From: a virus
Taxonomy: Duplodnaviria; Heunggongvirae; Uroviricota; Caudoviricetes
Virus record (IMG/VR): IMGVR_UViG_2721755710_000007
Coordinates: 11,410-75,409 of that record
Reading direction: 5' to 3' (one strand)
Length of the DNA stretch: 64,000 bases
Shown here: piece after piece, positions 6,973-27,805 of the stretch
Numbering within the stretch: position 1 is the first letter of the stretch
Layout of the letters: each line of letters starts with the position of its first letter
Program-made: the position numbers and the translations under genes
Notes under the pieces: generated by a model
Database searches by the model: none
Told to the model about the DNA's origin: nothing
The model's input: the letters and a program-made list of their open reading frames with translations, nothing else

Positions 6973-7018
6973 TATATTTATTATTTTTAAAATATTGGGG
7001 CGCGTATGCCCCTGTTTG

Positions 7019-7573
7019 TTAATGTTTTTTGTCCTCTTCCAGACGAGCAACTTTTAATTGTTTGTCCGTGATAGTAAGCAATGCAACCCCTTCTTTTTCG
7101 TACAAATAACCAGCTCCATTAATCAATAATACAAACCGATCCTTTCCTCGGAATACTTCATAATACTTACCAGCACCACAGGTTTTAGTTTCAATGCAGT
7201 CCAAACCAGAGATTGCAGCCTTATCAAAGATATGGTCCTTCGTCGCAACAGGTTTCCCATACTCTTTTGTAAGCATTTCATCTAATTGCATAAAGGTATA
7301 TTTGCCAACTTTTGTTGTCATGCTCAACTCAACCTTGCCATTAATCAACATTCCTGTGGTATGTGGTTCCTGAGCGTCAGGTGACGATTTATCGTATAAT
7401 GCAAAAAGTTCTATGTCTGGAGTCCGTTTTTCAAAAGTGGCTTCGTCCTGTTCTTCAAGATAACTCTTGTCTTCACCGATAAGTGAGAGTTTATCAATCT
7501 CTGACTGGTTACACCCTGTTAACATTAGAGCCATAGCAATAGAAGCGATGATGTTGAAACTACGATTTTTCAT
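7019..7573 (-). CDS. putative lipoprotein
   Basis: 184-aa ORF with signal peptide and lipobox LTGC. Confidence 0.5.
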   Translation of the reverse strand: MKNRSFNIIASIAMALMLTGCNQSEIDKLSLIGEDKSYLEEQDEATFEKRTPDIELFALYDKSSPDAQEPHTTGMLINGKVELSMTTKVGKYTFMQLDEMLTKEYGKPVATKDHIFDKAAISGLDCIETKTCGAGKYYEVFRGKDRFVLLINGAGYLYEKEGVALLTITDKQLKVARLEEDKKH

Positions 7574-7855
7574 TAATCAATCTCCGTGATTTGTGGTCAT
7601 CAAGACCGGACGCAGGAATAGCCCAGACTCTACTACTGCAACCATATAAAAAATAATAGAAATATTGGTTTATAGCATTTTTACAGATAAAAAAATTGAC
7701 ATCTGACAAATTACTTCTGCCAAAATCACATCAAGCCCGGTACGGATGGATCCCTTTTCAAATATTCCATGGACGGCACAGTCTGAGTACCGGGCGCTAC
7801 CTTCAGTTGTATTGCTAAGCCGCCGCTGGTGGCTTTTCTTTTTTGTAGGGGCGCT

Positions 7856-8500
7856 ATGGATAAGAAAATATGCGTTGTTTCGATGAGCGTCGGCAAACCG
7901 GCGTCAATGACTGCTGCATGGATCAACAACGAGCTGATAATGGCTGATCGGACCAGCTACCCTGAACGCCGCCGCGATATGGAACTCCAGCTGCTGCGCG
8001 AATTGCGAGAAAAAGAGGAAAAGGGTTTTATCGTGCTGGTGGAAGAGGAAAACAGCTTTATTACCGGTCGAGTTGGCCAGCGTGTAAGGTTGCGCGATCC
8101 CTTCATGAACGGCAGGCCGGTACTAATTGAAGCAATGCAGATTTACAAGGAGTTGGAACGCCAGAAAGCGATCAAGTTACCGCGCAAGGAATCCGGCAAA
8201 TACATCCTCCACCAAAGCATCTTCGATTCCGAACACGATAAAAAAGGCGATGAGTTTTTCAACATCAACTGGAGCGAGATAACGACAGAGCATGTTCTAA
8301 CGTTGTTATGCTGCTTCGCAACAGAATACAACAACGTGGTAAGCGCAGACTACATCAGGACAATGACAAACACCGTTACTAAACAAGACAACGAATATTC
8401 ACCATATGAGCTATTTGTAAATATGATAAAAGCATTTTATCGGATGGAGCTCGCTAAAGTTCCTCAAGGTAAATTAACAGGTAAGGATAACATCTTTTAA
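7856..8500 (+). CDS. hypothetical protein
   Basis: ORF from ATG at 7856 (MDKKICVV...); no recognised motif. Confidence 0.4.
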   Translation: MDKKICVVSMSVGKPASMTAAWINNELIMADRTSYPERRRDMELQLLRELREKEEKGFIVLVEEENSFITGRVGQRVRLRDPFMNGRPVLIEAMQIYKELERQKAIKLPRKESGKYILHQSIFDSEHDKKGDEFFNINWSEITTEHVLTLLCCFATEYNNVVSADYIRTMTNTVTKQDNEYSPYELFVNMIKAFYRMELAKVPQGKLTGKDNIF

Positions 8501-8553
8501 GCACAGTAATAAGGTGCTTAGATGTTCATATCAATATCCTAACTCTCTGCATC

Positions 8554-9243
8554 TCATAAATCTGATAGCCACTTACTATCTATGGACTCAATCTCCGTCA
8601 GCGGAATTGATGGGAAAAAATATCCCTGAGCGCCCCATAGCCCTATCCCTTTTGATAACTTATGACAATCAATGTTTTCGACGCCTTCAGCGATGATATT
8701 CGGACATAACTTTTTTAAATTGCTAATAATGACATCAAAATGAGGCTTAATCATATGCTCTTGAAAAAATGACTTATCAAGTTTTATTGCATGATATTTA
8801 TTTTTAATTAATGCTTTCATGGTGGCGTTACCACTTCCAAAATCATCAAGCCAAACATTATCTGTCAAAGTCAGTAGAAAGGATATGACGTAATCCTCAT
8901 CGCTTAAATCAGGATAGTTTTCTGATATCTCAATCGCTATAAATTTATTGTTTATTAGTAGTTCTTGAATTTGTTTATTGCCATATATATATAAACAGGT
9001 ATCATAATCTACATTGATAGAGCATAATATATTATGGCATTCAAAAAAACACTTATATTTGATTATTGTGTTAAGTTGAGATTTTAGCAAGTTAATCTTC
9101 ATCTTGCTTGTAAATATACCTAATACTTTCTGAGTAGAAAGAATAGCCCCCTCGTTGGAATAAAATCTGCTCAACACTTCCACTGCTATCAACTTGTTAG
9201 TGCTTGTGGAAATGATTGGTTCTACTATGTAGATAACTTCCAT
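8554..9243 (-). CDS. EAL-domain protein (c-di-GMP phosphodiesterase-like, possibly degenerate)
   Basis: 229 aa with EVLSRF, EISE, DDFGSG, KLDKSF, EGVE, QGY motifs; AT-rich. Confidence 0.6.
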   Translation of the reverse strand: MEVIYIVEPIISTSTNKLIAVEVLSRFYSNEGAILSTQKVLGIFTSKMKINLLKSQLNTIIKYKCFFECHNILCSINVDYDTCLYIYGNKQIQELLINNKFIAIEISENYPDLSDEDYVISFLLTLTDNVWLDDFGSGNATMKALIKNKYHAIKLDKSFFQEHMIKPHFDVIISNLKKLCPNIIAEGVENIDCHKLSKGIGLWGAQGYFFPSIPLTEIESIDSKWLSDL

Positions 9244-9464
9244 GCTCCCACCCTCTATTTTTAAATTGGTTGGCTTTAGCAGATAAAGTGCCCTTTATAT
9301 TTACAGGGGTTACACACTATGTCAATTTATTTATCTGTAGTGAAATTGATAAAAATTCAATAATAAAAGCAGCAACTGTGACACAAATCAATATTTTTAT
9401 TTTTTGCACAACTTCTTGATTTCAGTGCTGCTGTATCTCTATTCTTGTTCAAAGCCTCTTTAGA

Positions 9465-10198
9465 ATGGTGGTAGCTATGTCAGGAGTCTGTTACTTCATC
9501 CTAATAAAGAAACCGATAAATTTTCAATTTCTTAAGGATTTCTTAATATTAAATTATGGTGATGTGCTGTTGCTTAAACATTCTGAACGCGAATTCTTAC
9601 AAACCTATTCAGATAAATATATCGAATTCGAACTTAATGATAGTGCCGTAAGAAACTATTTATCTTGTCACAATCACCAAGGGAAGCAACTTCTGGATAA
9701 ATGCCCACATTTGCTAAAAAAGTCTTTTGCTTATCCTGATTTATTAATCAGGATGATCGATAATATAAGTGACCAGAATCATATACATCCTGATTTTAAG
9801 GATGCTTTAACTTTTTCATTACTTTCAATTTTTAGTGATGTTGACAACCTTAGAGCTTTTCTTAAATCTGGTATGCCTACTTTCTCAGGGAAAGTACGCA
9901 GCATATTTCTTTCAGATGTATCTAAACATTGGAAACTAAGAGACTTAACTGATTATCTATACATAGTGAGAGTTTAATAAAGAAAAAACTCTTATTAGAA
10001 AACACCTCCTTCAGTAAGTTATTACTTGATACACAAATGGCTTTTGCTATTAAATTACTAAAGCAAAACCGCCCCCTCAAACAAGTATCAGAAAGTTGTG
10101 GTTTTAGTAGCATATCGTACTTTGTGTGCCTATTTAGGCAGTATTATAATTGTACACCATGTGAATATGTAAAACATCAGTTATCATCTGGGAAATAA
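9465..10198 (+). pseudogene. AraC-family transcriptional regulator, frameshifted
   Basis: 170-aa N-terminal ORF, then in another frame a C-terminal HTH (LKQVSESCGFSSISYFVCLFRQYYNCTPCEY) ending at 10198. Confidence 0.5.
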
Positions 10199-10236
10199 GA
10201 TGCATTTATCTCCCAGATAATATTGTAATATTAAAC

Positions 10237-10485
10237 TCAGTCAGCATTTAGTAGCAGAGCATTATCTATGATGATCTGCTCCCATTCTTCGAATGCCCGG
10301 TCGCGGACGCCCTGGGGAACGCTGTTTGTTTTGAAATCGACGACCGTCCGCCATTTCCCGTCCGGACGGTACATGCGCAGAGCTTTACTTCCCCCTTCCC
10401 TGCGCACCTCAACGTTATGCTTGTCAGCAAACTCTTGTAATGCTCGTAGCGTCCCATGCTTTACTGTGTAGTATCGCTTTTTCAA
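10237..10485 (-). CDS. hypothetical 82-aa basic protein, third gene of a three-gene operon
   Basis: Start overlaps the stop of the upstream gene by 4 bp; may be a 3'-truncated fragment because an AT-rich junction follows directly. Confidence 0.45.
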   Translation of the reverse strand: MKKRYYTVKHGTLRALQEFADKHNVEVRREGGSKALRMYRPDGKWRTVVDFKTNSVPQGVRDRAFEEWEQIIIDNALLLNAD

Positions 10486-10922
10486 GTTTTCTCTCCAGCC
10501 TGTGCCAAGGCTTCAACTTCCAAATCGTAAGACTCAAACTCATAGTCCTGGTCGTCAACTTCTTCAGGGACTGGCAGTAAATGCCAGGCTGAGTATATCT
10601 GACCATTATCAAAACGCTCCTGGCTGTAGAGCGTCGCGGCTATGAGTGTTAGCGCCGGGCGGTCATAACGGTAAAATTTGCGAACGTCACGGTCAACGAG
10701 ACGACCGAAATTACCATAACCGCGCTCCAGTAATAATTTTTTAATTTCCGGCCAGTATGGGCCATAGCTGCGGTACAGGCGGGGATTTTTCAGTAATCGC
10801 CCGCGTAGCCCTGACAGGAAGAAATCAACGTATTCGTCTTCTGTCTTTCCTAACAACGCTGTACGGAGTACCGCCTCAAGATATGTTTTATTCGGTTTTA
10901 TTGTATCAGATAGTGTGGCCAT
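10482..10922 (-). CDS. hypothetical 146-aa protein, second gene of operon
   Basis: ORF 33 bp downstream of the large gene; no recognised motif. Confidence 0.45.
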   Translation of the reverse strand: MATLSDTIKPNKTYLEAVLRTALLGKTEDEYVDFFLSGLRGRLLKNPRLYRSYGPYWPEIKKLLLERGYGNFGRLVDRDVRKFYRYDRPALTLIAATLYSQERFDNGQIYSAWHLLPVPEEVDDQDYEFESYDLEVEALAQAGEKT

Positions 10923-10955
10923 ATTATGCGACGCCCGGCGAACCGGGCGCTCCTG

Positions 10956-12887
10956 TTATGCGTATTGTTGGATGACGGCCAGAACGTCCGCCACGTTGTG
11001 TTTTGTCTCGATAATCCACCAGTTGCCCGGGAAATCGCTGTTCTTCGCCTTCGCTGGCAGCCAGCGAGCGCCGAATTTTTCCTTGATTGCGTCTTTAGCA
11101 CGGAAAAGAACGCCTTTCATGCCGGACGCCTCCTGAAGCCCAAATACCTCACCAGCGGCGAATTTTGGTGCGTACATCATCTTCAGGTCGGCGGTGGATA
11201 CGCGATAATTCAGACCAAGAGACTGAGCTATGCTGGTGGCATCACCCTGTATTGATGATAACTCTTCTTGTTTCTCGTTTCTGGCGGCAATTTCTTCCTC
11301 CGTGATGTTGCCTAGGGCCAGGTTTATCCGATCAGCGTCGGCCTGTTTCTCTTCATCGGTGCGCCCGGCAAGAACCGTGTTAATTCTCTGCAATATCTCA
11401 ACATGATTCTTGCGCATGCTAAGCAATTCCGGCGTAACCTCGTTAAGGTCCACCAGCCCAAGGATGGCAAGGTCGGAAAACATTGATACCAGGTTGTAGG
11501 TCATGCGATAGCTGAGTTGCCCATAGGCTGATGGCAACTGCACCGCATCCATTTGATAGGCATCCATAAATTTAGAGCCGTCGTTTACGACATCCGCAAT
11601 TGCCGGTGTGATTTTCCCTGTGGTGGCGGCCTCCCTGATTGCTGTTACCCACGATTGAGTCAGCGCGGCGACTGCATGATTCAGATTGGCTTTCCGTTCT
11701 GCTGCAATACGCGCGCTTGCAGCGTCCATTGCCTGCTTGATCTCGTCTTTATTGCTGTAAATGCCAATGGTGCCAAACTGTGCTGTGGTGATCTCATAAT
11801 CTGACGCCCGGAACTCATGGGTACCGAAAATGGCATTGGTGACCTCAAGTTCAGAATCCCCGTTACGAGTAGCCCCCTGGCTTGTTTTCTCCGGCATTCT
11901 GGCGATCGCATCCGCTATTGTCTCCTGAATTGCTTCAGGGGATAGCGTATCTCCGTATGACGCGATTACTTCGCCATAATTGGAGCCAAACAGTTCAGTC
12001 AGGAATACTTCTGCCAAACGGACCTGGCGGTTATTCCCTTCCGACATCATACCAAGCACCCATTTTGCAATTGACGACTTCAGCGCGCCGTCACGGCGAT
12101 CCGGGTAAACCGCATGCTTCAGTGGGTCCGTATAGGTACCAACAAAATCAATGCTATAGCCTGACTCTGTAGTCTGAACGCCGTATGAGTCAGTGATTTT
12201 GATCATGCCGCGCTGCTGGAAACGGTAGAAATCGTCACAGGAAATGATGTCGTTAATCCCGGCGATGGAGACGCCACCACTGATTTTCTGCATAACAGCA
12301 TCTTCATCGGGAGTTACATCCACCTGTTTATCCAGCGTCTTCACATCCCAGTTACCCGATTTGGTGCCTTTGAAGGTAAAGATGATCTCCACGTCTGCGC
12401 GCTGGCTGTCGAAGTCCAGCGACTTAATGCGAACGATATCACCGGCACAATCGTAGTATTGGCCTACACGCCATGAGCGATCGCCGATAACAAGGAACTC
12501 ATTCGCATGGTTAACCAGATCAGGATCAACATCCAGAATGCCTTTATTTATTGCATCCTCCACCAGCGGGCGCAGGCGTTTGATATCCGTCGCGGCCTTC
12601 TGAGTACGGTTCAATAATTTCTCATAGCGGGAGATGGCTTGAGTGATATTAGCCTTGCGCTGAATGGCGCTTTTCAACGACGCGCGATAATGTGCTAACA
12701 ACGTACGGTCTGTGTGATGGACGCTACCCCAGCGGGCCTTCCAGTCTGCATTATCAGCTGCTTTGGCCATTAACTGGAGTGCCATCAGTACCAAGAACAG
12801 GAGCACCTCCCACGCTAATAGACTGGCCCCCTGAATCTCACCGTTCTGAAACCACAACAAAAAAACATCAGGAATAAAAAACACCAC
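10956..12887 (-). CDS. hypothetical large protein (up to 643 aa), first gene of operon; true start probably internal (Met codon at 12785 or 12770)
   Basis: Long ORF; codons 17-23 are encoded by an IS2 IRL remnant so the annotated N-terminus is doubtful; no Walker or methyltransferase motifs seen. Confidence 0.5.
   Translation of the reverse strand: MVFFIPDVFLLWFQNGEIQGASLLAWEVLLFLVLMALQLMAKAADNADWKARWGSVHHTDRTLLAHYRASLKSAIQRKANITQAISRYEKLLNRTQKAATDIKRLRPLVEDAINKGILDVDPDLVNHANEFLVIGDRSWRVGQYYDCAGDIVRIKSLDFDSQRADVEIIFTFKGTKSGNWDVKTLDKQVDVTPDEDAVMQKISGGVSIAGINDIISCDDFYRFQQRGMIKITDSYGVQTTESGYSIDFVGTYTDPLKHAVYPDRRDGALKSSIAKWVLGMMSEGNNRQVRLAEVFLTELFGSNYGEVIASYGDTLSPEAIQETIADAIARMPEKTSQGATRNGDSELEVTNAIFGTHEFRASDYEITTAQFGTIGIYSNKDEIKQAMDAASARIAAERKANLNHAVAALTQSWVTAIREAATTGKITPAIADVVNDGSKFMDAYQMDAVQLPSAYGQLSYRMTYNLVSMFSDLAILGLVDLNEVTPELLSMRKNHVEILQRINTVLAGRTDEEKQADADRINLALGNITEEEIAARNEKQEELSSIQGDATSIAQSLGLNYRVSTADLKMMYAPKFAAGEVFGLQEASGMKGVLFRAKDAIKEKFGARWLPAKAKNSDFPGNWWIIETKHNVADVLAVIQQYA
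12819..12839 (+). mobile_element. 21-bp IS2 left inverted repeat remnant
   Basis: TAGACTGGCCCCCTGAATCTC identical to the IRL of the intact IS2 at 19645; similarity stops after 21 bp. Confidence 0.6.
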
Positions 12888-13385
12888 ACAAACACAGCAC
12901 TGTACCCCCCCTCATAACTGAAAAGCGCCGCCGCCCCCGCCCGAAGGGCGGGAACAACATCGCTTTTAATTATGAATGTTGTAAGTACATTGTCATCGCT
13001 GTCAGTCTTCTGGCTGGAAGTCCTCAGTACACGCTCGTAAGCGGCCCTCACGGCCCGCTAACGCGGAGATACGCCCCGACTTCGGGTAAACCCTCGTCGG
13101 GACCACTCCGACCGCGCATAAAGGCTCTGTCATGGCTGAAAACGGGTATGGCTTAGCAGGGCCGGGGGTGGGTAAGGTGAAATCTATCAGTCAGTACCGG
13201 CTTACGCCGGGCTTCGGCGGTTTTACTCCGGTATCATATGAAACAACAGAGTGCCGCCTTCCATGCCGCTGGCGCGGCATCAGGACAACTGAAGAGTGAC
13301 GGCGCACATTAACATCAAACAGACTTGTTAAGCAGTCTTTCAGGGTGTAATCTGAAGACCTGTTAAATAGTCTCAGAGGTGTGTT

Positions 13386-13637
13386 ATGCCCAGTATCATT
13401 TTGTCTGACACCAGTGCAAGCGTCAGTGAGCTGAAAAAAAATCCGATGGCAACTGTCAGTGCCGGAGAGGGGTATCCTGTTGCCATTCTTAACCGGAATC
13501 AGCCAGCATTCTACTGTGTCCCTGCTGAGCTCTATGAAAGAATGCTTGATGCCTTGGATGACCAGGAGCTGGTAAAACTGGTTACTGAACGCAGCAGTCA
13601 GCCTCTGCATGATGTGGACCTGGACAGTTATTTATGA
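13386..13637 (+). CDS. stbD: StbD/RelB-like antitoxin
   Basis: 83-aa ORF overlapping the toxin start by 4 bp. Confidence 0.75.
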   Translation: MPSIILSDTSASVSELKKNPMATVSAGEGYPVAILNRNQPAFYCVPAELYERMLDALDDQELVKLVTERSSQPLHDVDLDSYL

Positions 13638-13921
13638 CTTATACAGTAAAATTCCGGGATGATGCACTGAAAGAATGGCTCAGACTGGACAAGACCATTC
13701 AGCAGCAGTTCGCAAAAAAACTGAAAAAATGCAGTGAAAATCCTCATATAGCTTCTGCAAAACTACGTGGATTAAAGGACTGCTATAAAATCAAACTTCG
13801 CGCATCAGGTTTTCGTCTGGTTTATCAGGTTATTGATGATATGTTAATTATTGCGGTCGTCGCAGTAGGTAAACGTGAACGCAGCAACGTTTATCATCTC
13901 GCCAGTGAACGGATGAAATAA
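13634..13921 (+). CDS. stbE: RelE/StbE-family toxin (mRNA interferase)
   Basis: 95 aa; ...LRGLKDCYKIKLRASGFRLVYQVIDD...VGKRERSNVY closely resembles recalled E. coli RelE. Confidence 0.8.
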   Translation: MTYTVKFRDDALKEWLRLDKTIQQQFAKKLKKCSENPHIASAKLRGLKDCYKIKLRASGFRLVYQVIDDMLIIAVVAVGKRERSNVYHLASERMK

Positions 13922-14780
13922 TATCCTGGTCAGCACTCTTTCTTACCTGCTTCCATTTTTTCAGTGATTCTTTTCCTGCATGCAGAAAAAAAGCCTACCC
14001 TGTGGGCAGGCATAACAGACAATCGCACAGTCAGTGTTGAAATTAATGATGTCACGCATTATACCCGGTGGATACACAAACCATCCCTGCAAATGCATTG
14101 GCATCCTAATCAACGTCTGAAACAACTGCAATGGCCGGATCTGTGATTTCAGAGAAAGTTATTATGTTTATTGAATATAACCGAAGTGATAAATAAAAGT
14201 ATTATCACCTTTAATATTTATGCTTATTGCGTGGTTTTATCTGGTTATATAAAGCACAGATGTTCTTATTATTTTCTGAAAAATAACCATATGGATCGAT
14301 TTCCCCCACCCAGCCGAAGCGGTTCGGCTCGTTCGGCGTGTCGTCGACACTGAAGCGCTTATCCATTTCGTTCCAGCGGTAAGAGTTGTCGCTGTCGCTG
14401 ACGAATGCCATCGGGTCGCTAAACAGCGTGATCCGCCATGCGATCAAAAAGCGTAAGTGTTTCCGACAGACGAGCCGGTGAAAAAAGTGGTGTGTCTGGC
14501 AATACAGGCATCGTCCCCGAAATGGACGATGCCGTTGAAGGACTGGGGTATGGCAATAAGCCGCTTTATTATCGGATTCAGTGACCGCCTGGACGGTTAC
14601 TTTTGAGAAAAGGCATTTACACACAATCCTAAACAGACTCCTATATTTCAGATTTTGTTATCAACGCATTTCAAATCTCTTAGAAATCATTACTGTCGTC
14701 ATATTTTCCGAGGCAGCTCACCACCTAACTATGTTTTATCAACAATATTTTGTGAAGGATATTTATAATGTAAAGACACA

Positions 14781-17700
14781 TCAGAAACGATATTCCACAC
14801 TCAACATGGCAGATGTATTATGGTATCCATGTTCTCCAAGTTGAATGCCTGCATCAGCCCGGAATGCTACTTCTGGTGTTATCATTCCCACAACACCACC
14901 ATTTATTTCTCCGATATCACGCGCACCATCCTGGTATATACTTACACCATTCATACTGGTGCCGAAAACACGACTATTGTGCAACCAGTGTGCCTCCACA
15001 AATGGTCTGAACGGAACCGCATACCGCGTATTTTTACCGTTTTTGCTGGTAAGCCATGTTCTTGCTCCCAGGCGGGTGAGAATATTTCCGTTACCGGTAT
15101 TTTCAATACTGGTTCCGTTACTTTCATGATATTTGTCTGATTTTACATTCATCCGGACAACCTGAAGCTGCGGCTGAACATACCATTCATGACTTCCCTT
15201 GTAATTGTCGGTAAACTCTCCAGCCTTCCATGAATATCCTGCTTCCAGAGATACCGTAAACCCTTTTGACTTCCATGACTCAGCAGGCAGCCGTTCTCCA
15301 TTTATATGATTATCAAACCAGCTGTATTGCAGCCAGCTATCAAGATAAGAACCATTGTGTGTTTCATCATTGGCATACCATGTTGCATAAAGACCCGCTG
15401 TGTATCCATTCATTCTTCCTTCCGAATGGTATCCGGTGCTCAGGGCATTCGTACTGTTATTATTATGACCATAGCCAGCCATCATACCTGTATGCCAGCG
15501 ATCGGTACCATTCAGGCTCCACTGAGCTATATCTCCCCCTATTAACACAACGTAGCTATTCCCCCGGGTTCTCAGCTGACTACTGTTGTCACGCCAGCGA
15601 TTATGTTTTCCTTTATTATACATCCAGATACCTGCTTCATTTTCTTCTCCTGTCATGTGGCTGATATACAACTCCTGTCCCTGTCGTTCATACAGATTCG
15701 TTACAAACAGATTATTTGCAGCAGCAATACTGGCAACATAGCTACCTGCCTCAGGACGCAAATTATTATCATGGTTTTCCGGTACAGCTTCAGGTTGTGG
15801 TACAGGAATGTCTTTTCTGCTAATCAGATACCAGTTAGTGCTGTTAATCCCCTGACCACGTTTCAGTATGTAATCATAAGCTCCGGCTGTAATACGTTCC
15901 GTCTGAATGAATTCAGCATTATCAGCATTGCCACTGACGTGAATCACTTCAATCCCATTAAGTGTCTCTGCACCAGTACCACCGGCCTGAGTAACAGCGA
16001 CACGGGTACGGCCACTGGCATTACCTTTAATCACCAGACGATCTGTTTTCGAATTGTCACCACCTGTTTCTGTCTGGAGGAGAATAAGTCCATTTCTGCC
16101 AGTGTAATTCCCTCCGACAGTCAGTATATTACCCGGCATATATGTAGTGAGATCGACTATACCACTATTGCTCAGATTTCCTGCAACGCCCCCAAACCCG
16201 GAGAGTTTGCCCTGCTCTTCAACAATGACCTGGTTACTGCCGAGCATCACCGGTGAATCTGCGTTCCCCAGTATCACTGTCCCCTGAATAATATCTGTCA
16301 TCCCGGTCCATTTTGCGTTATCGCTAATGTTCAGTGCACCTGCTCCCGTCTTGCGAACATTACCATAACCACTGATATTGTTGGTAAGCTGCCATGCTGA
16401 TGTACTGTTCAGAGTTAATGTGCCATAGTTATCAACAAAGGCTGTCCCCAGATTATCAGCCGTGGATACAGCCAAATGAGCCCCCTTATTCACGGTAAAA
16501 ACACCGGAAAAATTACGATTATTACCCGTTATATCAAGCATTCCCCCATTTATGTTCAGAGAACCATCCCCTGCAATAGTACCTGCAGATTCTCCTCCAT
16601 TATTCAGTATCAGGCTTCCGCCATGAATGTTCAGCACAGAGCCTGCAGCCGTCAGTAGTTTGCTTATTGTCTGAGGATACCCATTCATATCCAGTTCTGC
16701 GCCACGGGATAAATATAAATACTCAGTCCGACCAAGAGCATCAGGTGCAGCAAGAATTAATACGCCAGATTTAACCTCTGTATTTCCTGTATAATTGTTT
16801 GTTGCAGAAAGTATAAGAGTACCATTACCTGATTTTGTCAGACTTTTGCCGTCCCAGCCATCATATAATAAAGGTGAAAGATTATCGGAAAGAGAAACAC
16901 CTATGTTCAGAGTGGCATCTTTTTCTATATTAAAGGTTCCATATCCCATGCCTTTTGTATTATTCCATCTCAGCATGGAGATCAGTTTGTTATCGTCGTC
17001 ATTTAAAGACGTATAAACATAACTTTCAGCACCTTCTGTCAGTAATACATTGTATTGTACAATGTGACTATTATCAGCGATCGAGATACCTGTGTCTGAC
17101 GACAATAATGTGTAATAGTCCTGAGTCCAGTTCTTAATTGATGTGTCTATATTAAGCCATGAATCACTTTTTAATGTAATAGTATTTGCGTGAACATTAG
17201 CATTTCCTACAGACAGGTTCATAGATGCGTCTTCATCAATACTTATATTTCCGTTAAAAATGGAGTTCTTGCCTGACAGATAAACAGATGAGCCATTCCC
17301 AATCATTAGCCCACCATTAATTGCTGTTGCGTTATTGATGTTTTTAATAATTAATTCATTTGTACCATTAACAGGTATACTAGCTAGTTTAATATCACCA
17401 TTAATCACAGAATCTGAATAAATATCTAATGAATTATACCCGCCAGAAAAAATTATTGATGTATTATAAGCATCTTTTTGGCTATTATATAATCCTGAAA
17501 GATTACCATGATTATTAATATGGATATCTTCTCCATAAACAGAGCAACCACCGTCGGGGCCATATCCCCCCTGAACAATACCGTTATTATTCAAAGTGAT
17601 TTGATTTCCAGAAATAGCATCTCCCCCTTGTTTTATTCCATATCCTCCAGATATCATGTTGTCGTTAGTAATGAAAAGATTACTACCATTAATACCATCA

Positions 17701-18278
17701 CCACCGTTTACGCCATTACCGCCCAATATTCCTCCGGAATTATGCACTGTAATATTGCTACCGGTTACACCGGAACCACCTGTCCCACCTACATCATCAC
17801 CTCCGTATATACTTCTGTAATTATCAACTATAATATCATCCCCGCTTAACCCTGCACCTCCGCTACTTCCTGAGCCACCAAGACCATTACCCCCATATAC
17901 ATTTCTGTAATTGTTTATAGATATTTTGTTGCCACTAACAGCAATTCCACCATTATATCCATCTCCTCCCCAAACACTACCATTATTATTTAGCGTAAAG
18001 TTTTCACCGTAGACACCTGCACCACCGATTGATGTATTGCTTGTTCCTCCTTTGATGTTAATACTGCTTTCAACAGATAGTATATTTTGAGTATAACTTG
18101 TTTTATACGGCACGCTGATATTAAGCGCCGCGTTTCCATCAACACCTGTAATACTCCTGGTTATACTTTTAGGTATACCATTACCATTCAGTTGTATTGT
18201 TTGCGCACCAGAAAAATGAGACTGCACAGAATAAATTATACTGACCAGAAATTGTAAAATTCGTATATTCTTATTCAT
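14781..18278 (-). CDS. autotransporter adhesin (AIDA-I/TibA/Ag43-like)
   Basis: 1165 aa; signal peptide, glycine-rich ~19-aa passenger repeats, C-terminal beta-barrel ending ...SVEYRF; AT-rich. Confidence 0.75.
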   Translation of the reverse strand: MNKNIRILQFLVSIIYSVQSHFSGAQTIQLNGNGIPKSITRSITGVDGNAALNISVPYKTSYTQNILSVESSINIKGGTSNTSIGGAGVYGENFTLNNNGSVWGGDGYNGGIAVSGNKISINNYRNVYGGNGLGGSGSSGGAGLSGDDIIVDNYRSIYGGDDVGGTGGSGVTGSNITVHNSGGILGGNGVNGGDGINGSNLFITNDNMISGGYGIKQGGDAISGNQITLNNNGIVQGGYGPDGGCSVYGEDIHINNHGNLSGLYNSQKDAYNTSIIFSGGYNSLDIYSDSVINGDIKLASIPVNGTNELIIKNINNATAINGGLMIGNGSSVYLSGKNSIFNGNISIDEDASMNLSVGNANVHANTITLKSDSWLNIDTSIKNWTQDYYTLLSSDTGISIADNSHIVQYNVLLTEGAESYVYTSLNDDDNKLISMLRWNNTKGMGYGTFNIEKDATLNIGVSLSDNLSPLLYDGWDGKSLTKSGNGTLILSATNNYTGNTEVKSGVLILAAPDALGRTEYLYLSRGAELDMNGYPQTISKLLTAAGSVLNIHGGSLILNNGGESAGTIAGDGSLNINGGMLDITGNNRNFSGVFTVNKGAHLAVSTADNLGTAFVDNYGTLTLNSTSAWQLTNNISGYGNVRKTGAGALNISDNAKWTGMTDIIQGTVILGNADSPVMLGSNQVIVEEQGKLSGFGGVAGNLSNSGIVDLTTYMPGNILTVGGNYTGRNGLILLQTETGGDNSKTDRLVIKGNASGRTRVAVTQAGGTGAETLNGIEVIHVSGNADNAEFIQTERITAGAYDYILKRGQGINSTNWYLISRKDIPVPQPEAVPENHDNNLRPEAGSYVASIAAANNLFVTNLYERQGQELYISHMTGEENEAGIWMYNKGKHNRWRDNSSQLRTRGNSYVVLIGGDIAQWSLNGTDRWHTGMMAGYGHNNNSTNALSTGYHSEGRMNGYTAGLYATWYANDETHNGSYLDSWLQYSWFDNHINGERLPAESWKSKGFTVSLEAGYSWKAGEFTDNYKGSHEWYVQPQLQVVRMNVKSDKYHESNGTSIENTGNGNILTRLGARTWLTSKNGKNTRYAVPFRPFVEAHWLHNSRVFGTSMNGVSIYQDGARDIGEINGGVVGMITPEVAFRADAGIQLGEHGYHNTSAMLSVEYRF

Positions 18279-18325
18279 ACTGTTTTTTCTTTAGTGATGC
18301 ATTTTTTATCAACCTGGATTTGCCC

Positions 18326-19231
18326 CTATATTTCCAGACACCTGTTATCACTTAACCCATTACTGGCTTGCTGCCGTAGATATTCCCGTGGCGAGCGATA
18401 ACCCAGTGCACTATGCGGATGCCATTCGTTATAATGCTCGAATGCCTCTGCAAGGTTCTTTGCTGCCGTTAACCCGTCTGGTTTGGGCATGACACTGATG
18501 TAGTCACGCTTTATCGTTTTCACGAAGCTCTCTGCTATGCCGTTACTCTCCGGACTCCGCACCGCCGTGTTCTTCGGTTCAAGCCCCAACATCCGGGCAA
18601 ACTGCCGTGTTTCATTAGCCCGGTAGCATGAACCATTATCCGTCAGCCACTCTACTGGAGACGCCGGAAGCTCGTTGCCGAAACGGCGTTCCACCGCTCC
18701 CAGCATGACGTCCTGTACTGTTTCACTGTTGAAGCCGCCCGTAGTGACCGCCCAGTGCAGTGCCTCACGGTCACAGCAGTCCAGCGCGAACGTGACTCGC
18801 AGTTTTTCTCCGTTATCACAGCGGAACTCGAACCCGTCAGAGCACCATCGCTGATTACTTTCTTTCACAGCCACTCTGCCGGTATGTGCCCGTTTCGATG
18901 GCGGTACAGCGGGTTTTCGCTCAAGCAACAGCGCATTCTGGCGCATGATCCGGTAAATACGTTTGGCATTGATCGCAGGCATACCATCAAGTTCGGCCTG
19001 TCTGCGAAGCAGCGCCCATACCCGACGATAACCATACGTGGGCAGCTCTCCGATAACATGGTGTATACGGAGAAGCACATCCGTATCATCTGAGTGACGG
19101 CTGCGGCGACCATCTTTCCAGTCATCGGTTCGTCTGAGAATTACGTGCAACTGCGCACGCGACACCCGGAGACAACGGCTGACTAAGCTTACTCCCCATC
19201 CCCGGGCAATAAGGGCGCGTGCGCTATCCAC
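18326..19231 (-). CDS. insD: IS2 OrfB transposase
   Basis: 301-aa IS3-family integrase-core ORF. Confidence 0.9.
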
Positions 19232-19554
19232 TTTTTTGCACGCCCGTATTCAACGGCTTCTTTAAGGAGTTCATTTTCCATCGTTTTTTTGCCGAGCAGG
19301 CGCTGGAGTTCTTTAATCTGCTTCATGGCAGCAGCAAGTTCAGAGGCAGGAACGACCTGCTCTCCTGCGGCCACAGCAGTAAGACTTCCCTCCTGGTATT
19401 GCTTGCGCCAGAGAAATAACTGGCTGGCTGCCACACCGTGTTGCCGGGCAACAAGGGAGACCGTCATTCCCGGTTCAAAACTCTGCTGAACAATAGCGAT
19501 CTTTTCCTGTGTAGTACGCCGTCTGCGTTTCTCCGGTCCTAAGACATCAATCAT
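19189..19554 (-). CDS. insC: IS2 OrfA
   Basis: Starts [24 protein letters not shown]; overlaps OrfB as in IS3-family frameshift arrangement. Confidence 0.85.
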
Positions 19555-19759
19555 CTGCTCTCCAATGACTAGTCTAAAAACTAGTATTAAGACTATCACT
19601 TATTTAAGTGATATTGGTTGTCTGGAGATTCAGGGGGCCAGTCTAATTTATTATAGAGTATATATATGTACTGCGTTTAAATCATGAAGACGACAACCTG
19701 TTTTACATAAATTATTCCTAAGTATTTTTCCAGAGAAGACCTAGGTATAATGATGTGCA

Positions 19760-20527
19760 GGTAATGACTCCAACTTATTGATAGTGTTTTATGTTCAGAT
19801 AATGCCCGATGACTTTGTCATGCAGCTCCACCGATTTTGAGAACGACAGCGACTTCCGTCCCAGCCGTGCCAGGTGCTGCCTCAGATTCAGGTTATGCCG
19901 CTCAATTCGCTGCGTATATCGCTTGCTGATTACGTGCAGCTTTCCCTTCAGGCGGGATTCATACAGCGGCCAGCCATCCGTCATCCATATCACCACGTCA
20001 AAGGGTGACAGCAGGCTCATAAGACGCCCCAGCGTCGCCATAGTGCGTTCACCGAATACGTGCGCAACAACCGTCTTCCGGAGACTGTCATACGCGTAAA
20101 ACAGCCAGCGCTGGCGCGATTTAGCCCCGACATAGCCCCACTGTTCGTCCATTTCCGCGCAGACGATGACGTCACTGCCCGGCTGTATGCGCGAGGTTAC
20201 CGACTGCGGCCTGAGTTTTTTAAGTGACGTAAAATCGTGTTGAGGCCAACGCCCATAATGCGGGCAGTTGCCCGGCATCCAACGCCATTCATGGCCATAT
20301 CAATGATTTTCTGGTGCGTACCGGGTTGAGAAGCGGTGTAAGTGAACTGCAGTTGCCATGTTTTACGGCAGTGAGAGCAGAGATAGCGCTGATGTCCGGC
20401 GGTGCTTTTGCCGTTACGCACCACCCCGTCAGTAGCTGAACAGGAGGGACAGCTGATAGAAACAGAAGCCACTGGAGCACCTCAAAAACACCATCATACA
20501 CTAAATCAGTAAGTTGGCAGCATCACC
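19760..20527 (-). mobile_element. IS1 copy 2
   Basis: 768 bp identical in ORF content to copy 1 (insB 19775-20278, insA 20197-20472); no 9-bp duplication. Confidence 0.95.
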
Positions 20528-20563
20528 CTTAAGAAGATCGCCCTGAAATTCATCAAATAATCC

Positions 20564-21286
20564 TTAGCGGCGTTTACCAGACAGTTCCGCAGCAATATAA
20601 GCCTGCACGCTTTTGTACTGTTTTACCTTTTCGATAAACTCATCGGGACTGTAAGCACCTTTTACACGACGGGATACGTTAAGTGTTTTCTTAACCCGTT
20701 CGATATACATGTTGAGACTTCGAATAATATTGTGCGCCATTACGTTGTAATCGCTAACCGGTAATTGACCCAGAGAGTTGAATTTGTACATCTGGGTCAG
20801 AAGGTTGTTCATTTCAAAGATGTGCTTATAAAAACGCATTGTATTTTGATTGTTGAAGTTTAACTGGACCGATTCAAATCGGAACGGAGAAAACTCAGTT
20901 GATGAGAAGAATGGATCACTTTCATCAACGTGAATAGTGGCGATATGATGTTCCAGATTCTCCTTCATTAAATTATTTTCGTCGTGCAATTCATTAAACC
21001 AGTCCTGAATTGCCTGCACCAATTCGGGGTGCCTTACCGCATTAACCGTCCTGAATAATGATGAAATAGCAATACTTACATCATCAAAGCCTCTAATTAC
21101 GGAACGATTCCGAGCCGTAAGGAAACGGTTAAAATCGGGAGTACCTGGCTTAATGGTTACTGTGGCCATGCCGTAAAGTTCATTTTTACTTTGCACGACT
21201 TTTCGGGTATTGTCAGATGCCTGAGAGGTGCGGGCATTTACATCAGGAGTTTTCTGCTCGGTTTCATTTATTGATACGTCGGTCAT
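20564..21286 (-). CDS. hypothetical 240-aa protein, second gene of two-gene operon
   Basis: ORF; start overlaps upstream gene stop by 4 bp; no recognised motif. Confidence 0.5.
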   Translation of the reverse strand: MTDVSINETEQKTPDVNARTSQASDNTRKVVQSKNELYGMATVTIKPGTPDFNRFLTARNRSVIRGFDDVSIAISSLFRTVNAVRHPELVQAIQDWFNELHDENNLMKENLEHHIATIHVDESDPFFSSTEFSPFRFESVQLNFNNQNTMRFYKHIFEMNNLLTQMYKFNSLGQLPVSDYNVMAHNIIRSLNMYIERVKKTLNVSRRVKGAYSPDEFIEKVKQYKSVQAYIAAELSGKRR

Positions 21287-21768
21287 TGTGCCACCTCATA
21301 TTTTGAGTATTTACGGATTTTCCGTCCCAGTTTGATATATGCAGCATGATAGAATTCAAGTAATTCTCTGTAGGGTTCCAGTAATCCCTCCGTTTTTTCG
21401 ATCATTTCATATTCCCAAGACGCGTGATTAACAAAGCAGCTTTTTGAATATTTTCCGTTTTTCATCGCAGAAACCCGTTTCGACATATAGCTGGGTGCCC
21501 TGGTTTTAAACGGACTGAACTTATGCCAGGTGATAGTGACTTTTTTCGCATTACCAATTAATTCTAGTTTCGGTGCATACGAACCCAGATACTCACGTTT
21601 TAGTGTATTGCTAGGCCGGGGTAAATTAATCTCCAGATGATTCCGTTCTTTCCACTCGATCCAGTAATTTGTACACAAGTCTTCAGCCTCCTCCCGCAGA
21701 GCCTCGATTTGTGAACGCATTAAGCTGCGCGATAATTCAAGTGACTTTATTAGTTTCGAATTAGACAT
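21283..21768 (-). CDS. hypothetical 161-aa protein, first gene of two-gene operon
   Basis: ORF; lysine-rich; no recognised motif. Confidence 0.5.
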   Translation of the reverse strand: MSNSKLIKSLELSRSLMRSQIEALREEAEDLCTNYWIEWKERNHLEINLPRPSNTLKREYLGSYAPKLELIGNAKKVTITWHKFSPFKTRAPSYMSKRVSAMKNGKYSKSCFVNHASWEYEMIEKTEGLLEPYRELLEFYHAAYIKLGRKIRKYSKYEVAQ

Positions 21769-22035
21769 GTGACCTCCTGATGTGAAATCACTATACCGAA
21801 GTGGTTTTTATTTTTTTTCACAAACAGGACTTTTTTCAGTGATTTTTTTCTGAGAATTATGAGGGGCGTGTCGTTGGTGCGATGCATACCGATAGTGAAT
21901 AACACCAGATGAGCTCGGGAACGGCATAGCGGGGTGTACTTATGTTCGGCAGAAAAGTAGCTTTTTCTGCAATGGGTATTCCTGATCCGGTGATTTGAAA
22001 AGTGCTGTTTTACTTACTAAGTTATACATATATCT

Positions 22036-22197
22036 AGTGCCACTTTTTAATCAAAAGTGACCCTAGGTTTTTTGCGCATAGTGCCACTTTTTAAAAAAGT
22101 GACCCTATGTCCTGTCTACATAGGGTCACTTTTCACAAAGAAGTGACCCTATGTCGAGGCTCCATAGGGCCACTTTTCAGCAAAAAGTGACCCTATG
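22036..22197. repeat. array of eight copies of a ~14-bp motif (AAAAGTGACCCTATG) in alternating orientation
   Basis: Copies at 22036, 22054, 22080, 22097, 22121, 22141, 22163, 22185 forming four or more inverted-repeat pairs. Confidence 0.8.
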
Positions 22198-22780
22198 TAA
22201 TAGCCATTGTTAATCAATCGGAAAAATATTCATGCTAGCTCGCTCTTATCGCTAAGGTTATTGCTGCTTTCTGCCGATAACAGTGCAAGTTTTGCGATTT
22301 TTTTAAGCGCTTCACAGTTCGTTAGCAAGCTCAGTTTTTTTTGATAAAATTCTGGTCAGTTTGTTTAAAAAGTGTTACAAGTAAGGCGAATGGTTGAATG
22401 GTTAGTTTTAAGACTCAAATCGGCAGTATTAAAATTCCAAAAGTAGCTTTTCATACTTCAAAAAACCAAACTTTAATTTCATGTAGAAGAGTTGTACTAT
22501 TGTATTGACTCAAGGACAATCCGACATGTCAGAATCAGATAACATAACGCGTAACTATTACGTACCGAGGTTTCGATTATTCGTAGTTACCGTGCATTCC
22601 TAATGTTATTGCCTATCCATGATCTTCTTCGTATCAATCAGGGTCTCCACTCTTGCAACGCCGTCTATTTGGAGACGGATTTGGGACAATGACTGATAAT
22701 GCATTTGAAGTTGAAACTCGTCCGGGAAGTTTCCTCGTTCCACGTTCTTTAGGCAAAGAGATTTCCTGGGATAATTTTTT

Positions 22781-23311
22781 ATGGCTGTTGTCGATGGTGA
22801 CACTAACGTTATTCGAGAATATGACAGTGACGATGCTGACTTCGGTATTTACAATGCTGGGGAAAAAGTTACTTTACTGTGTGGCCGGGAAGACTTTTAT
22901 AATCCGACAAAAATTCAGCAGTTACGCTCTAAGTGTGTAGATATACAAAATGATTACTTTATTCAAATCTTCTTTATGTCAATGCTTGCACCTGAGTTTG
23001 TCAGCATATTTTTTGGATTAAAGCCTGCCACCGCAGATGCAATAAAAGATGTTGGCGTTTCATCACTTAAAGCAATTAACGATGTTGTTCTCTTTCCGCG
23101 AACAATTGCCTTTACGCCAGGACTGGGGGATGATAGCACTACGTTAAAATCTAAAGTATTCGCCAGGGCATACGAATTATCTGCCGACATTCGTTTGGGT
23201 AAAGTTAGTGATGACTTAATGGAACTACTGCGTTACGACACTATGTTTACGTGTCACCGTCAGGATGTGTTTAACTCATTAGCAAATAAAGTGCTCTTGA
23301 AGGATTATTGA
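22781..23311 (+). CDS. hypothetical acidic 176-aa protein
   Basis: ORF only; stops 7 bp before IS1 copy 3. Confidence 0.3.
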   Translation: MAVVDGDTNVIREYDSDDADFGIYNAGEKVTLLCGREDFYNPTKIQQLRSKCVDIQNDYFIQIFFMSMLAPEFVSIFFGLKPATADAIKDVGVSSLKAINDVVLFPRTIAFTPGLGDDSTTLKSKVFARAYELSADIRLGKVSDDLMELLRYDTMFTCHRQDVFNSLANKVLLKDY

Positions 23312-23317
23312 ATATGG

Positions 23318-24085
23318 GGTAATGACTCCAACTTATTGATAGTGTTTTATGTTCAGATAATGCCCGATGACTTTGTCATGCAGCTCCACCGATTTTGAGA
23401 ACGACAGCGACTTCCGTCCCAGCCGTGCCAGGTGCTGCCTCAGATTCAGGTTATGCCGCTCAATTCGCTGCGTATATCGCTTGCTGATTACGTGCAGCTT
23501 TCCCTTCAGGCGGGATTCATACAGCGGCCAGCCATCCGTCATCCATATCACCACGTCAAAGGGTGACAGCAGGCTCATAAGACGCCCCAGCGTCGCCATA
23601 GTGCGTTCACCGAATACGTGCGCAACAACCGTCTTCCGGAGACTGTCATACGCGTAAAACAGCCAGCGCTGGCGCGATTTAGCCCCGACATAGCCCCACT
23701 GTTCGTCCATTTCCGCGCAGACGATGACGTCACTGCCCGGCTGTATGCGCGAGGTTACCGACTGCGGCCTGAGTTTTTTAAGTGACGTAAAATCGTGTTG
23801 AGGCCAACGCCCATAATGCGGGCAGTTGCCCGGCATCCAACGCCATTCATGGCCATATCAATGATTTTCTGGTGCGTACCGGGTTGAGAAGCGGTGTAAG
23901 TGAACTGCAGTTGCCATGTTTTACGGCAGTGAGAGCAGAGATAGCGCTGATGTCCGGCGGTGCTTTTGCCGTTACGCACCACCCCGTCAGTAGCTGAACA
24001 GGAGGGACAGCTGATAGAAACAGAAGCCACTGGAGCACCTCAAAAACACCATCATACACTAAATCAGTAAGTTGGCAGCATCACC
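23318..24085 (-). mobile_element. IS1 copy 3
   Basis: 768 bp; insB 23333-23836, insA 23755-24030; same orientation as copy 2; no duplication. Confidence 0.95.
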
Positions 24086-25559
24086 TATCAATGGCCTGGG
24101 CAATACTTTCCGTCGAAAATGATTGCAACATATTGCCGATATCCTCAAATCCAAGTGATTTGAGAGCCTCACCAATGGCGCTGCTAATACCAGATACCAG
24201 TCCCCCCATATCAAGAACATTAGCTAACGTATAAGCGGCTTTTTGCTGGAATGATGGATCTTGTCCTGATTTAAGCCCAAACGCTCGACGTTGCGCTTCT
24301 GTATCATTCCAACCGGTTACCGCATCATAAATACCTCCAGCCACTGTGCCGACTAGGGGAATTGCGCGTAACGCCCCTTTACCAACTGCCTTTAATCCAA
24401 GTTTACCTGCTGCCCGGGCAGCCAAATCTCCGCCTTCATGGGCGAGAGTCTTCTTGCCACCACCGCGTAGCATTCCTACAAGTTTCTTTGCCCCCAGAGC
24501 GCCAAAAGCGAGTGCTCCAGCTTTTTTCAGCATGCCACGCCCCATTAACAACGACGCGACGCCACCGGCCCCCTTCCCTAACAGGCTAAATAGTTTGGAC
24601 AGCAAGCCGCCCTTCTTTTTCCCGGTGTTTTTGGCTATCTGATCAAGGGCACGGAGAATCTTGTCATTGCCCTCTTTAATTTCGCTGGTCTGCTCCTGAA
24701 GTTCCTGAACCGTCCGTTTTTGGGTGTTAACCTGAACGACATCGGCACTATTTTGCGATTTACGCCTAAAAAAACCTTTTCTACGGCTGTTATCGTCGTT
24801 GCCACGAATCACATCGGCAATAGACTTTCTGGCACCATTAAGCGATCCACCAACTTCTTTTGATATCCCGCCAAGCTCCTTCCCTGCTGCCCACAATGGA
24901 CCAGCAACGGCATAACCTAACGCATCGACGGCACGAGTCTCTGAAGGGTTACCTATGCCTTCAGCTACTTTTGACAGTTTTTTTAATAAACCTGATTCAG
25001 CATTTAGACGCTCATCATCCTCTTTGCGCCTGGCCTTTTCAGCACGTTCAGCACGGGCATCTTCCGCTGCGGCCTTACTCCCTGACTTTCCAATAAAACG
25101 ACCACGCGCATCGCGTTGGTTTTGGCTTTTTTGCGCACCGCCTTTTTGACCGAACATTTCGCGAGCGTGTTCGGCTGCTTCGGTCCGTTGCGCCTTTACA
25201 TCTTCTGTTATAGCCTTCTTGCGTCGTTTTTTACCCTTTCGCGTAGTTGATTTGGCCTGCGGTTCCTGTAGAGCAACATCCTCCTGAACTACACGAGAAA
25301 CGTCCCCTAAATTAAGCCGTTTCATTGCCTCAACAATAGGGTCCACTGATGGCGCATTGGCCACAAAGTCTGGCCGGGAATTTTCGATTGTGCGATTTAA
25401 TGCCGACACACTGCGAGAGACAGGATCAACTGTAGCAACTCGCCCACCTTTCAAATCTTCAACGGCTTCCCGAATACCTGCAAGCTCTTCCAGCTCTTTT
25501 GCGCTGGCGGTTTCAACCGTCCTTATCACATCGTCAATGTTGGCGTTTTTTCTTTCCAT
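24081..25559 (-). CDS. Gly/Ala/Lys-rich phage structural-like protein; 3' end abuts IS1 and may be truncated
   Basis: 492-aa ORF whose stop codon lies inside the IS1 terminus. Confidence 0.45.
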   Translation of the reverse strand: MERKNANIDDVIRTVETASAKELEELAGIREAVEDLKGGRVATVDPVSRSVSALNRTIENSRPDFVANAPSVDPIVEAMKRLNLGDVSRVVQEDVALQEPQAKSTTRKGKKRRKKAITEDVKAQRTEAAEHAREMFGQKGGAQKSQNQRDARGRFIGKSGSKAAAEDARAERAEKARRKEDDERLNAESGLLKKLSKVAEGIGNPSETRAVDALGYAVAGPLWAAGKELGGISKEVGGSLNGARKSIADVIRGNDDNSRRKGFFRRKSQNSADVVQVNTQKRTVQELQEQTSEIKEGNDKILRALDQIAKNTGKKKGGLLSKLFSLLGKGAGGVASLLMGRGMLKKAGALAFGALGAKKLVGMLRGGGKKTLAHEGGDLAARAAGKLGLKAVGKGALRAIPLVGTVAGGIYDAVTGWNDTEAQRRAFGLKSGQDPSFQQKAAYTLANVLDMGGLVSGISSAIGEALKSLGFEDIGNMLQSFSTESIAQAIDR

Positions 25560-27749: not shown

Positions 27750-27805
27750 TTAACAGATTCTACGAGTTGTCATTTGTGACAGTATGCTCGCAATCGTAGT
27801 GATTA

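Follow-up and report, generated by a model that had tools for sequence, protein, structure and literature searches.

The adhesin gene aatA behind IS2 on an apparently defective P1-derived plasmid

The autotransporter gene and its product

We analyzed a 64,000-nucleotide stretch of DNA, positions 11,410 to 75,409 of the IMG/VR virus record IMGVR_UViG_2721755710_000007 (hereafter the window; positions are counted from its first letter), in which a large autotransporter gene lies beside a copy of the insertion sequence (IS) IS2 in a backbone related to phage P1. One unbroken open reading frame (ORF) fills positions 14781..18278 of the minus strand and encodes 1165 amino acids (aa), as a first-pass annotation made from the sequence alone had stated. 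That annotation had left the product as an unnamed AIDA-like protein, which it is not. Because the length of the ORF (3,498 bp with the stop codon) is the one published for aatA, this gene was suspected and the named aatA loci were then compared directly with the window. The window protein showed 0 aa differences from the protein of Escherichia coli BL21 (WP_001038839.1) and 0 from that of plasmid p22Q34-2, which has the same accession, and 5 aa differences from Orf60 of the P1-like phage phi456. The type protein of pAPEC-O1-ColBM, encoded beside eitABCD, was identical at 1133 of 1165 positions (97%; 32 differences in a gap-free alignment). This near-identity to named aatA loci argues that the window gene is an already characterized adhesin gene, and we assign it to aatA, which codes for the avian pathogenic E. 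coli (APEC) autotransporter adhesin A, and specifically to the allele of E. coli B strains. The gene is thus already known, and AatA has been a characterized virulence-associated adhesin of APEC since 2010. The description of the protein as APEC autotransporter adhesin A is reportedly due to Li and colleagues in 2010, beside that of Dai and colleagues in the same year.

The earlier work on aatA gives a 3,498-bp gene with a 124-kDa product and IS2, IS91, and IS1 in its flanks, carried by pAPEC-O1-ColBM, BL21(DE3) (ECBD_0123), and REL606 (ECB_03531), and describes a single-gene locus with IS2 or IS91 on the 5' side and IS1, IS30, or IS629 on the 3' side (Dai et al. 2010). The pAPEC-O1-ColBM locus is APECO1_O1CoBM96, and BL21 aatA sits at 52.7-56.2 kb in the selC chromosomal island. 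The window holds the same gene in the same IS-flanked single-gene layout, with IS2 at 18315-19645 and IS1 at 19760-20527, and in every locus compared the shared aatA module terminates at IS elements. It differs in its replicon, since the published aatA genes named above reside on a ColBM/ColV IncF plasmid or in the selC island and the window is part of a P1-derived IncY plasmid. Stretches covering at least 80% of a 3.9-kb aatA query were contained in 220 plasmids of PLSDB and in 664 of 5,426 complete E. coli genomes (about 12%); among phage records, the single match to this query was phi456.

The domain composition of the protein was examined next to its identity. At the N-terminus, codons 1-25 (18204..18278, minus strand) encode a probable Sec signal peptide, recognized by inspection as MNKNIR / ILQFLVSIIYSV / QSHFSGA followed by Q, in which a basic n-region precedes a hydrophobic core (residues 7-18, mean Kyte-Doolittle value 2.16) and a small-residue SGA motif. 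A signal peptide had also been predicted for AatA with SignalP (Dai et al. 2010). The Gly-rich repeats of the passenger (considered below) are followed by the VirG/IcsA insertion domain (VID, aa 377-434, 16977..17150, minus strand; PF22364, 31.5 bits against a cut-off of 27), with the IcsA structure 5KE1 aligning to aa 376-549, and by a passenger-associated transport repeat (PATR, aa 480-508, 16755..16841, minus strand; PF12951, E 4.5e-09; TIGR02601, E 4.3e-09). A type 1 autochaperone (AC_1, aa 717-805, 15864..16130, minus strand; PF18883, E 6.1e-24) matches the IcsA structure 3ML3 (E 3.7e-24) and also the AIDA-I structure 4MEE, and Pfam additionally reports a Pertactin-like segment (PF03212). 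A linker helix region at about aa 838-870 precedes the C-terminal β-barrel translocator (aa 884-1143, 14850..15629, minus strand), whose PF03797 match (E 9.6e-35) covers positions 1-254 of the 255 in the profile. The solved AIDA-I translocator 4MEE matches the C-terminal 455 residues (aa 711-1165) with E 2.6e-73, and TIGR01414 gives a score of 322.7 bits. The first-pass annotation had made its claim hinge on the presence of a barrel and on an undisrupted gene; the barrel it had proposed is there in full length and the gene is intact. Together, these matches identify AatA as an intact classical type Va autotransporter, as judged by its domains.

From this domain anatomy and the established biology of type Va secretion, the route of the protein can be proposed. 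The Sec signal peptide would direct the 124-kDa precursor to the periplasm, where the β-barrel assembly machinery (BAM) would insert the C-terminal AIDA-type 12-stranded β-barrel into the outer membrane. The passenger would then be threaded outward, C-terminus first, and the autochaperone would nucleate folding of the β-helical passenger, which would be retained on the cell surface. Near-identical alleles are reported in the literature to mediate adhesion to chicken DF-1 fibroblasts, which anti-AatA blocks, to contribute to virulence, and to be activated by FNR.

An IcsA-like passenger on an AIDA-type secretion unit

The first-pass annotation had described glycine-rich passenger repeats of about 19 aa in an AIDA-like protein. 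Gly-rich repeats are present: seven units of 25-30 aa occupy aa 76-260 (17499..18053, minus strand), as defined by autocorrelation, unit alignment, and tblastn. Alignment of the seven units gave the consensus GGxGxxGGxGVxGxxIxxNNxGxxx, with G1, G2, G9, G10, G15, and N22 invariant. The proposed period was not recovered. Autocorrelation of the Gly-rich region against shuffled sequences peaked at lag 25 (z 6.8), and lag 19 reached a z of only 3.3 with no harmonic at lag 38. The repeats are of the type found in IcsA, and the similarity to IcsA extends along almost the entire protein. As reference we used the icsA gene on the Shigella flexneri 64-5500 plasmid NZ_CP026812.1. Because this copy is frameshifted within its first ~290 codons, we compared AatA with all of its frames by tblastn rather than aligning the two proteins. 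The match was colinear over aa 45-1165, with 35% identity in aa 45-244 (the Gly-rich repeats), 32% in aa 219-635 (E 1.8e-55), and 32% in aa 483-1165 (E 8e-110). In NZ_CP026812.1 itself, the reading frame of icsA is lost at about codon 19 and regained near codon 290, and no feature is annotated for it; this copy is either a pseudogene or was misread in its Gly-rich repeats during sequencing.

The curated AIDA-I model NF033176 scored 272.8 bits against its cut-off of 1200 and aligned to aa 649-1165 only, the C-terminal 45% of the protein. In a 2022 phylogeny, AatA belongs to Group 8 with IcsA, MisL, ShdA, YfaL, EhaA/J, and UpaE, apart from the self-associating autotransporters (SAATs) AIDA-I, TibA, and Ag43, which form Group 4. 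The description as AIDA-like is thus true of the secretion unit only, and the passenger is built like that of IcsA/VirG. With AIDA-I, AatA shares type Va secretion, and the AIDA-I autochaperone and barrel are its closest solved relatives (4MEE); unlike AIDA-I, TibA, and Ag43, it has no 19-aa repeat array and no adjacent heptosyltransferase of the Aah/TibC type, and it stays far below the AIDA-I model cut-off. With the IcsA/VirG protein of Shigella, it shares Gly-rich repeats, VID, PATR, autochaperone, and barrel in the same order at about 32% identity. Only about one-third of the residues are identical, however, and the documented role of AatA is that of an adhesin in extracellular APEC. With regard to the N-WASP recruitment and polar localization of IcsA, the likeness is one of sequence and domain order alone.

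The lack of a glycosyltransferase partner was part of the same AIDA-like interpretation. As the first-pass annotation had noted, no glycosyltransferase gene lies beside aatA in the window, and none is found beside it at the phi456, pAPEC-O1-ColBM, or BL21 loci either. Similarly, no heptosyltransferase is annotated anywhere in LR883966.1, a complete and near-identical plasmid described below. The absence had been attributed to the IS2 copy on the 5' side of the gene. This attribution fails because loci without this IS2 also have no such gene and because the DNA replaced by IS2 in the window is only 134 bp of non-coding sequence. A passenger that is not of the SAAT type has, moreover, no reason to need a glycosyltransferase partner. 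These observations bear directly on the possibility that the window encodes a SAAT-type self-associating adhesin like AIDA-I, TibA, or Ag43, with 19-aa repeats and a heptosyltransferase partner lost through IS2. The barrel and autochaperone are indeed closest to AIDA-I (in the 4MEE and NF033176 matches given above), the tree of Dai et al. places AatA near AIDA-I, TibA, and Ag43, and the title of a paper by Wang in 2011 reports cell aggregation by AatA. On autoaggregation the literature is conflicting, since Li 2010, as cited elsewhere, found none. The 25-aa period, the restriction of the AIDA-I model to the C-terminal part of the protein, the IcsA-homologous passenger, the Group 8 placement, and the lack of an annotated glycosyltransferase or heptosyltransferase at loci without this IS2 and on the whole near-identical plasmid all speak against such an adhesin, which we regard as largely refuted and very improbable.

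The opposite extreme, that AatA has the intracellular role of IcsA and recruits the host actin machinery rather than acting as an adhesin, would fit the colinear identity of ~32%, including the Gly-rich region, and the VID domain. The identity in the repeat region is, however, low and driven by composition, the replicon offers no type III secretion system or other invasion context, and published experiments show adhesion by AatA in extracellular APEC. We consider this role scarcely credible.

IS2 in place of the native aatA promoter

The IS2 copy on the 5' side of aatA, correctly noticed in the first-pass annotation, is 1331 bp long (18315..19645, minus strand) and was delimited by its terminal sequences and the Pfam domains HTH_Tnp_1 and rve. 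It encodes InsC (19189-19599) and InsD (18326-19231), both on the minus strand and thus co-oriented with aatA, its right end points toward aatA, and the IS2 copies of pAPEC-O1-ColBM match it at 97% identity. When the upstream region was compared base by base with those of phi456, pAPEC-O1-ColBM, and pTB422, only 36 bp of the native 5' region were seen to remain between the right end of IS2 and the ATG of aatA (18279..18314, minus strand). Within this residue are a TGATAAAAA motif and AAAGAAAAAA, which weakly resembles a Shine-Dalgarno sequence. On the other side of IS2 lies a 114-bp native remnant (19646..19759, minus strand) equivalent to positions -171..-284 relative to aatA, which is 100% identical to phi456, includes 84 bp identical to pAPEC-O1-ColBM, and is cut off by IS1. 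Measured against phi456, in which the region upstream of aatA is uninterrupted, IS2 therefore replaces 134 bp of native non-coding DNA (-37..-170). No 5-bp target-site duplication was found around the window IS2. This abutment at -36 with no target duplication points either to an insertion accompanied by an adjacent deletion or to a recombination between two IS2 copies.

The replaced segment is the one in which regulation of aatA has been placed. Promoter activity was found in the 100 bp that precede the ORF, with start sites predicted at -59 and -86 (Dai et al. 2010), both inside the 134 bp. FNR was shown to activate aatA and to bind a PCR product that contains the predicted site (-79) of its promoter region (Barbieri et al.). 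The FNR site TTGAGAAAAAACAT, at -93..-80 (pAPEC-O1-ColBM 81,838-81,851), belongs to the lost DNA, and its motif does not occur anywhere in the 64-kb window. In this respect the window differs from pAPEC-O1-ColBM and BL21: its IS2 stands at -36, and the FNR site and the predicted starts are gone. Of the 100-bp promoter region with its FNR site near -80, only 36 native bp remain, which leaves the identity of the gene unaffected. No sigma-70-like site was detected on the minus strand between 17099 and 19800 in a crude consensus scan, which can miss IS2-derived or extended -10 promoters. Likewise, a consensus scan, which gives a weak negative, predicted no terminator between insD and aatA or downstream of aatA. 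Since insD stops 47 nt before the aatA ATG in the same orientation with no terminator predicted in between, read-through of the IS2 transposase message is a possible source of aatA transcripts. On this replicon, aatA would be transcribed, if at all, by such read-through or from a weak residual promoter, and its transcription is probably FNR-independent and low.

We considered 2 outcomes of this arrangement. According to the first, aatA is an intact but effectively untranscribed gene that hitch-hikes on its island. The loss of -37..-170 with the FNR site and the lack of a consensus promoter upstream favor it, as does the precedent of BL21, in which an identical protein is encoded behind a different upstream region and AatA was undetectable with a low transcript level (Dai et al. 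2010). On the other hand, the ORF is free of disabling mutations and is identical or near-identical in several plasmids with the same junction (although this may reflect recent clonal spread only), and the co-oriented insD without a predicted terminator makes some read-through likely. A silent gene is therefore a tenable possibility that we rate at somewhat below even odds. We also asked of BL21 whether its different promoter was the same IS2 junction, and rejected this, because the BL21 upstream region is diverged but uninterrupted.

According to the second, IS2 drives the gene, through read-through or through an outward -35 element in its right end that combines with the residual TGATAAAAA, so that expression would be constitutive or IS-controlled instead of FNR-activated. 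IS2 is a classical case of an insertion sequence able to switch on adjacent genes. The comparison of upstream regions revealed IS2 at three positions, each time with the right end toward aatA: at -36 in the window, at -63 in pTB422 (a clean insertion with the 5-bp duplication GTATC that leaves the FNR site beyond IS2), and at about -254 in pAPEC-O1-ColBM. An IS2-proximal junction was found in 50 of the 5,426 complete genomes, the exact -36 junction in six records among the IS2-proximal matches listed, and the native -1..-170 region in 449 complete genomes. Counting against activation by IS2, no good -35/-10 pair spans the junction by eye or by scan, the own promoter of IS2 is weak, and three co-oriented insertions are statistically non-significant. 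Expression driven by IS2 is thus possible but doubtful, and the three independent positions in one orientation are suggestive without being statistically meaningful. It is tempting to extend this to a scenario in which the repeated landing of IS2 is a selected promoter rewiring that frees the adhesin from FNR and oxygen control, the -36 variant having then spread across poultry, wildlife, and humans with a lineage of defective P1 derivatives and also inside other plasmids, where it would form part of a P1 block cre-darB'-aatA. We regard this scenario as speculative and unlikely.

The P1-derived carrier and the spread of the aatA block

Phage P1 accounts for much of the window, with 43.7 of the 64 kb aligning to it at 92-99% identity, including pacB, c1, lox/cre, ref, lxc, tail and head genes, repA/par, dmt, and ban. 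The maintenance and immunity genes of P1 (repA/par, c1, and cre-lox) are present according to the P1 map, and LR883966.1 is typed as IncY. The cargo sits in an IS-rich island (12773..24086) that, in the map of the window against P1, replaces P1 12,286-42,919; the map jumps from 12,285, inside darB, to 42,920, inside sit. The island contains a toxin-antitoxin pair, aatA, IS2, IS1, an IncA/C mobI fragment, and a second IS1. At its left edge darB is truncated to its 3' third (10956..12887, minus strand; window 10241-12772 corresponds to P1 9754-12285, the full darB to P1 10469-17236). Missing at the island are prt (portal), pro, lyz, lydA-E, ssb, darA, hdf, ddrAB, cin, the S/U/R tail fibers, 16, bplA, pmgA, and the 5' part of sit.

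The closest complete replicon, LR883966.1, is a 104.7-kb IncY plasmid from a red fox in Norway that is 99.9-100% identical to the window barring IS1-bounded differences. P1 12,286-22,623 and 23,396-43,022 are absent from the entire plasmid. This absence of the P1 portal, lysis, tail-fiber, and baseplate genes from the closest whole replicon argues that the carrier is a defective P1-derived plasmid and not a working phage-plasmid. Of the earlier description of aatA as phage-plasmid cargo, the part that stands is that the gene is IS-bounded cargo on a P1-derived replicon; an intact phage-plasmid is not what carries it, and mobilization of aatA by the phage-plasmid is unsupported. With ~30 kb of P1 morphogenesis and lysis genes lost, the element would be inherited in plasmid form rather than spreading by phage infection.

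Altogether, the joint explanation that best accounts for the locus is a B-type allele of aatA with an IcsA-like passenger, carried by a defective P1-derived IncY plasmid, with its promoter replaced by IS2; we give it a probability of about 0.9. Several points weigh against it. The ORF is intact and the same IS2 junction at -36 occurs in at least 6 plasmids from different hosts and countries, so the gene could still be expressed and useful. The promoter search was a crude consensus search and the aatA start site is predicted, not mapped; low expression from this replicon is proposed on the strength of the DNA sequence. Finally, packaging of the plasmid by a helper P1 in the same cell is conceivable, as pacA, pacB, and lpa are present in LR883966.1.

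The remaining features of the island and its surroundings were also recorded. The toxin-antitoxin pair (13386..13921, plus strand; Phd/YefM-ParE/RelE, PF02604 and PF05016) lies in the 3' flank of aatA and is annotated beside aatA in p22Q34-2, LR883966, and pF1267-1 as well; the flank from 13812 onward is common to the window and BL21. The IS1 that bounds the aatA module (19760..20527) contains the InsA and InsB ORFs and is 98.8% identical to the IS1 of P1. Beyond it, window 20528-23317 is a fragment of an IncA/C (IncC) transfer region with mobI (21283-21768; PF19456) and a 240-aa ORF that matches no Pfam family. In LR883966.1 the mobI region is followed by a MobH relaxase, which in the window was cut off by the IS1 at 19760-20527. 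The plasmid might be mobilizable by an IncC helper rather than by a phage. Elsewhere, window 2351-4055 consists of an IS1 and a partial IS5 at P1 ~94,517, inside the imcA/imcB immunity-C region upstream of coi/c1, and P1 segments are replaced by non-P1 DNA at window 6991-10240, 27778-29153, 32589-34818, and 40342-42717. Among these replacements, EcoP1 res/mod has given way to hypothetical genes and one with an EAL domain, other DNA stands in place of the sim region, IS421 and hokD are inserted, and parA/parB are divergent. The 57-72 kb region of LR883966.1, which lies beyond the window, carries qnrS1, blaTEM-1, and tet(A) with IS26/Tn3 and a type I restriction-modification system; these resistance genes link the aatA lineage to multidrug resistance.

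P1-like elements with IS-mediated insertions of virulence or resistance genes and with backbone deletions are a known kind (Venturini et al. 2019). The P1-like IncY phage-plasmids pSvP1 and pTZ20_1P of that study, and phi456, resemble the window in their P1 backbone (repA/par, c1, cre, and tail and head genes), IS-borne accessory genes, and loss of backbone segments; they differ from it in that the window replicon is without the portal, lysis, tail-fiber, and baseplate genes (P1 12.3-42.9 kb). In phi456, aatA is Orf60 (OR339795.1, 49743-53240) and is annotated as a hypothetical protein. The phi456 paper does not mention an autotransporter or aatA and ascribes the lower colonization of the phage-cured strain to reduced type 1 fimbriae (fimA/fimH). 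AatA is an obvious alternative or additional explanation for that phenotype. In the deposited phi456 sequence, the aatA island stands at a 16-kb backbone deletion, P1 63,075-79,151 (dmt, ban, tRNAs, and the tail/baseplate genes 5, 6, 24, 7, 25, and 26), and P1 89,323-93,231 (lpa, pacA, and pacB) is missing as well. The phage is nevertheless described as plaque-forming, which points to a helper unless the deposited assembly is incomplete or rearranged.

The junction between truncated darB and the island (12772/12773) was found, in exactly this form, in 21 plasmids of 80-175 kb. One of them, the 174-kb IncHI1B plasmid pF1267-1 (NZ_OY754417.1, 126-142 kb), carries a P1 block running from cra-cre-c8 through lxc-ulx-darB' to the toxin-antitoxin genes and aatA, flanked by unrelated genes (the dms operon and bcs genes). 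The presence of this block with its junction in an unrelated backbone indicates that a P1 remnant travels with aatA between plasmids. Our literature search, which was polluted by the unrelated gene of enteroaggregative E. coli that is also named aatA, found no paper linking aatA to IncY, P1-like elements, or phage-plasmids.

What is new here is new only mildly: that IS2 has removed the FNR-dependent promoter, and that aatA is associated with P1-derived replicons, which had gone unremarked. Three smaller points are of practical use. The adhesion and colonization phenotype of phi456 has been interpreted without considering its "hypothetical" aatA, and carriage of a gene as cargo of a phage-plasmid should not be taken to mean that phage particles spread it, as the P1 derivative in the window is without particle-making genes. 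Furthermore, scoring aatA as a virulence marker by PCR or gene presence overlooks alleles, including that of the window, that have lost the FNR-dependent promoter.

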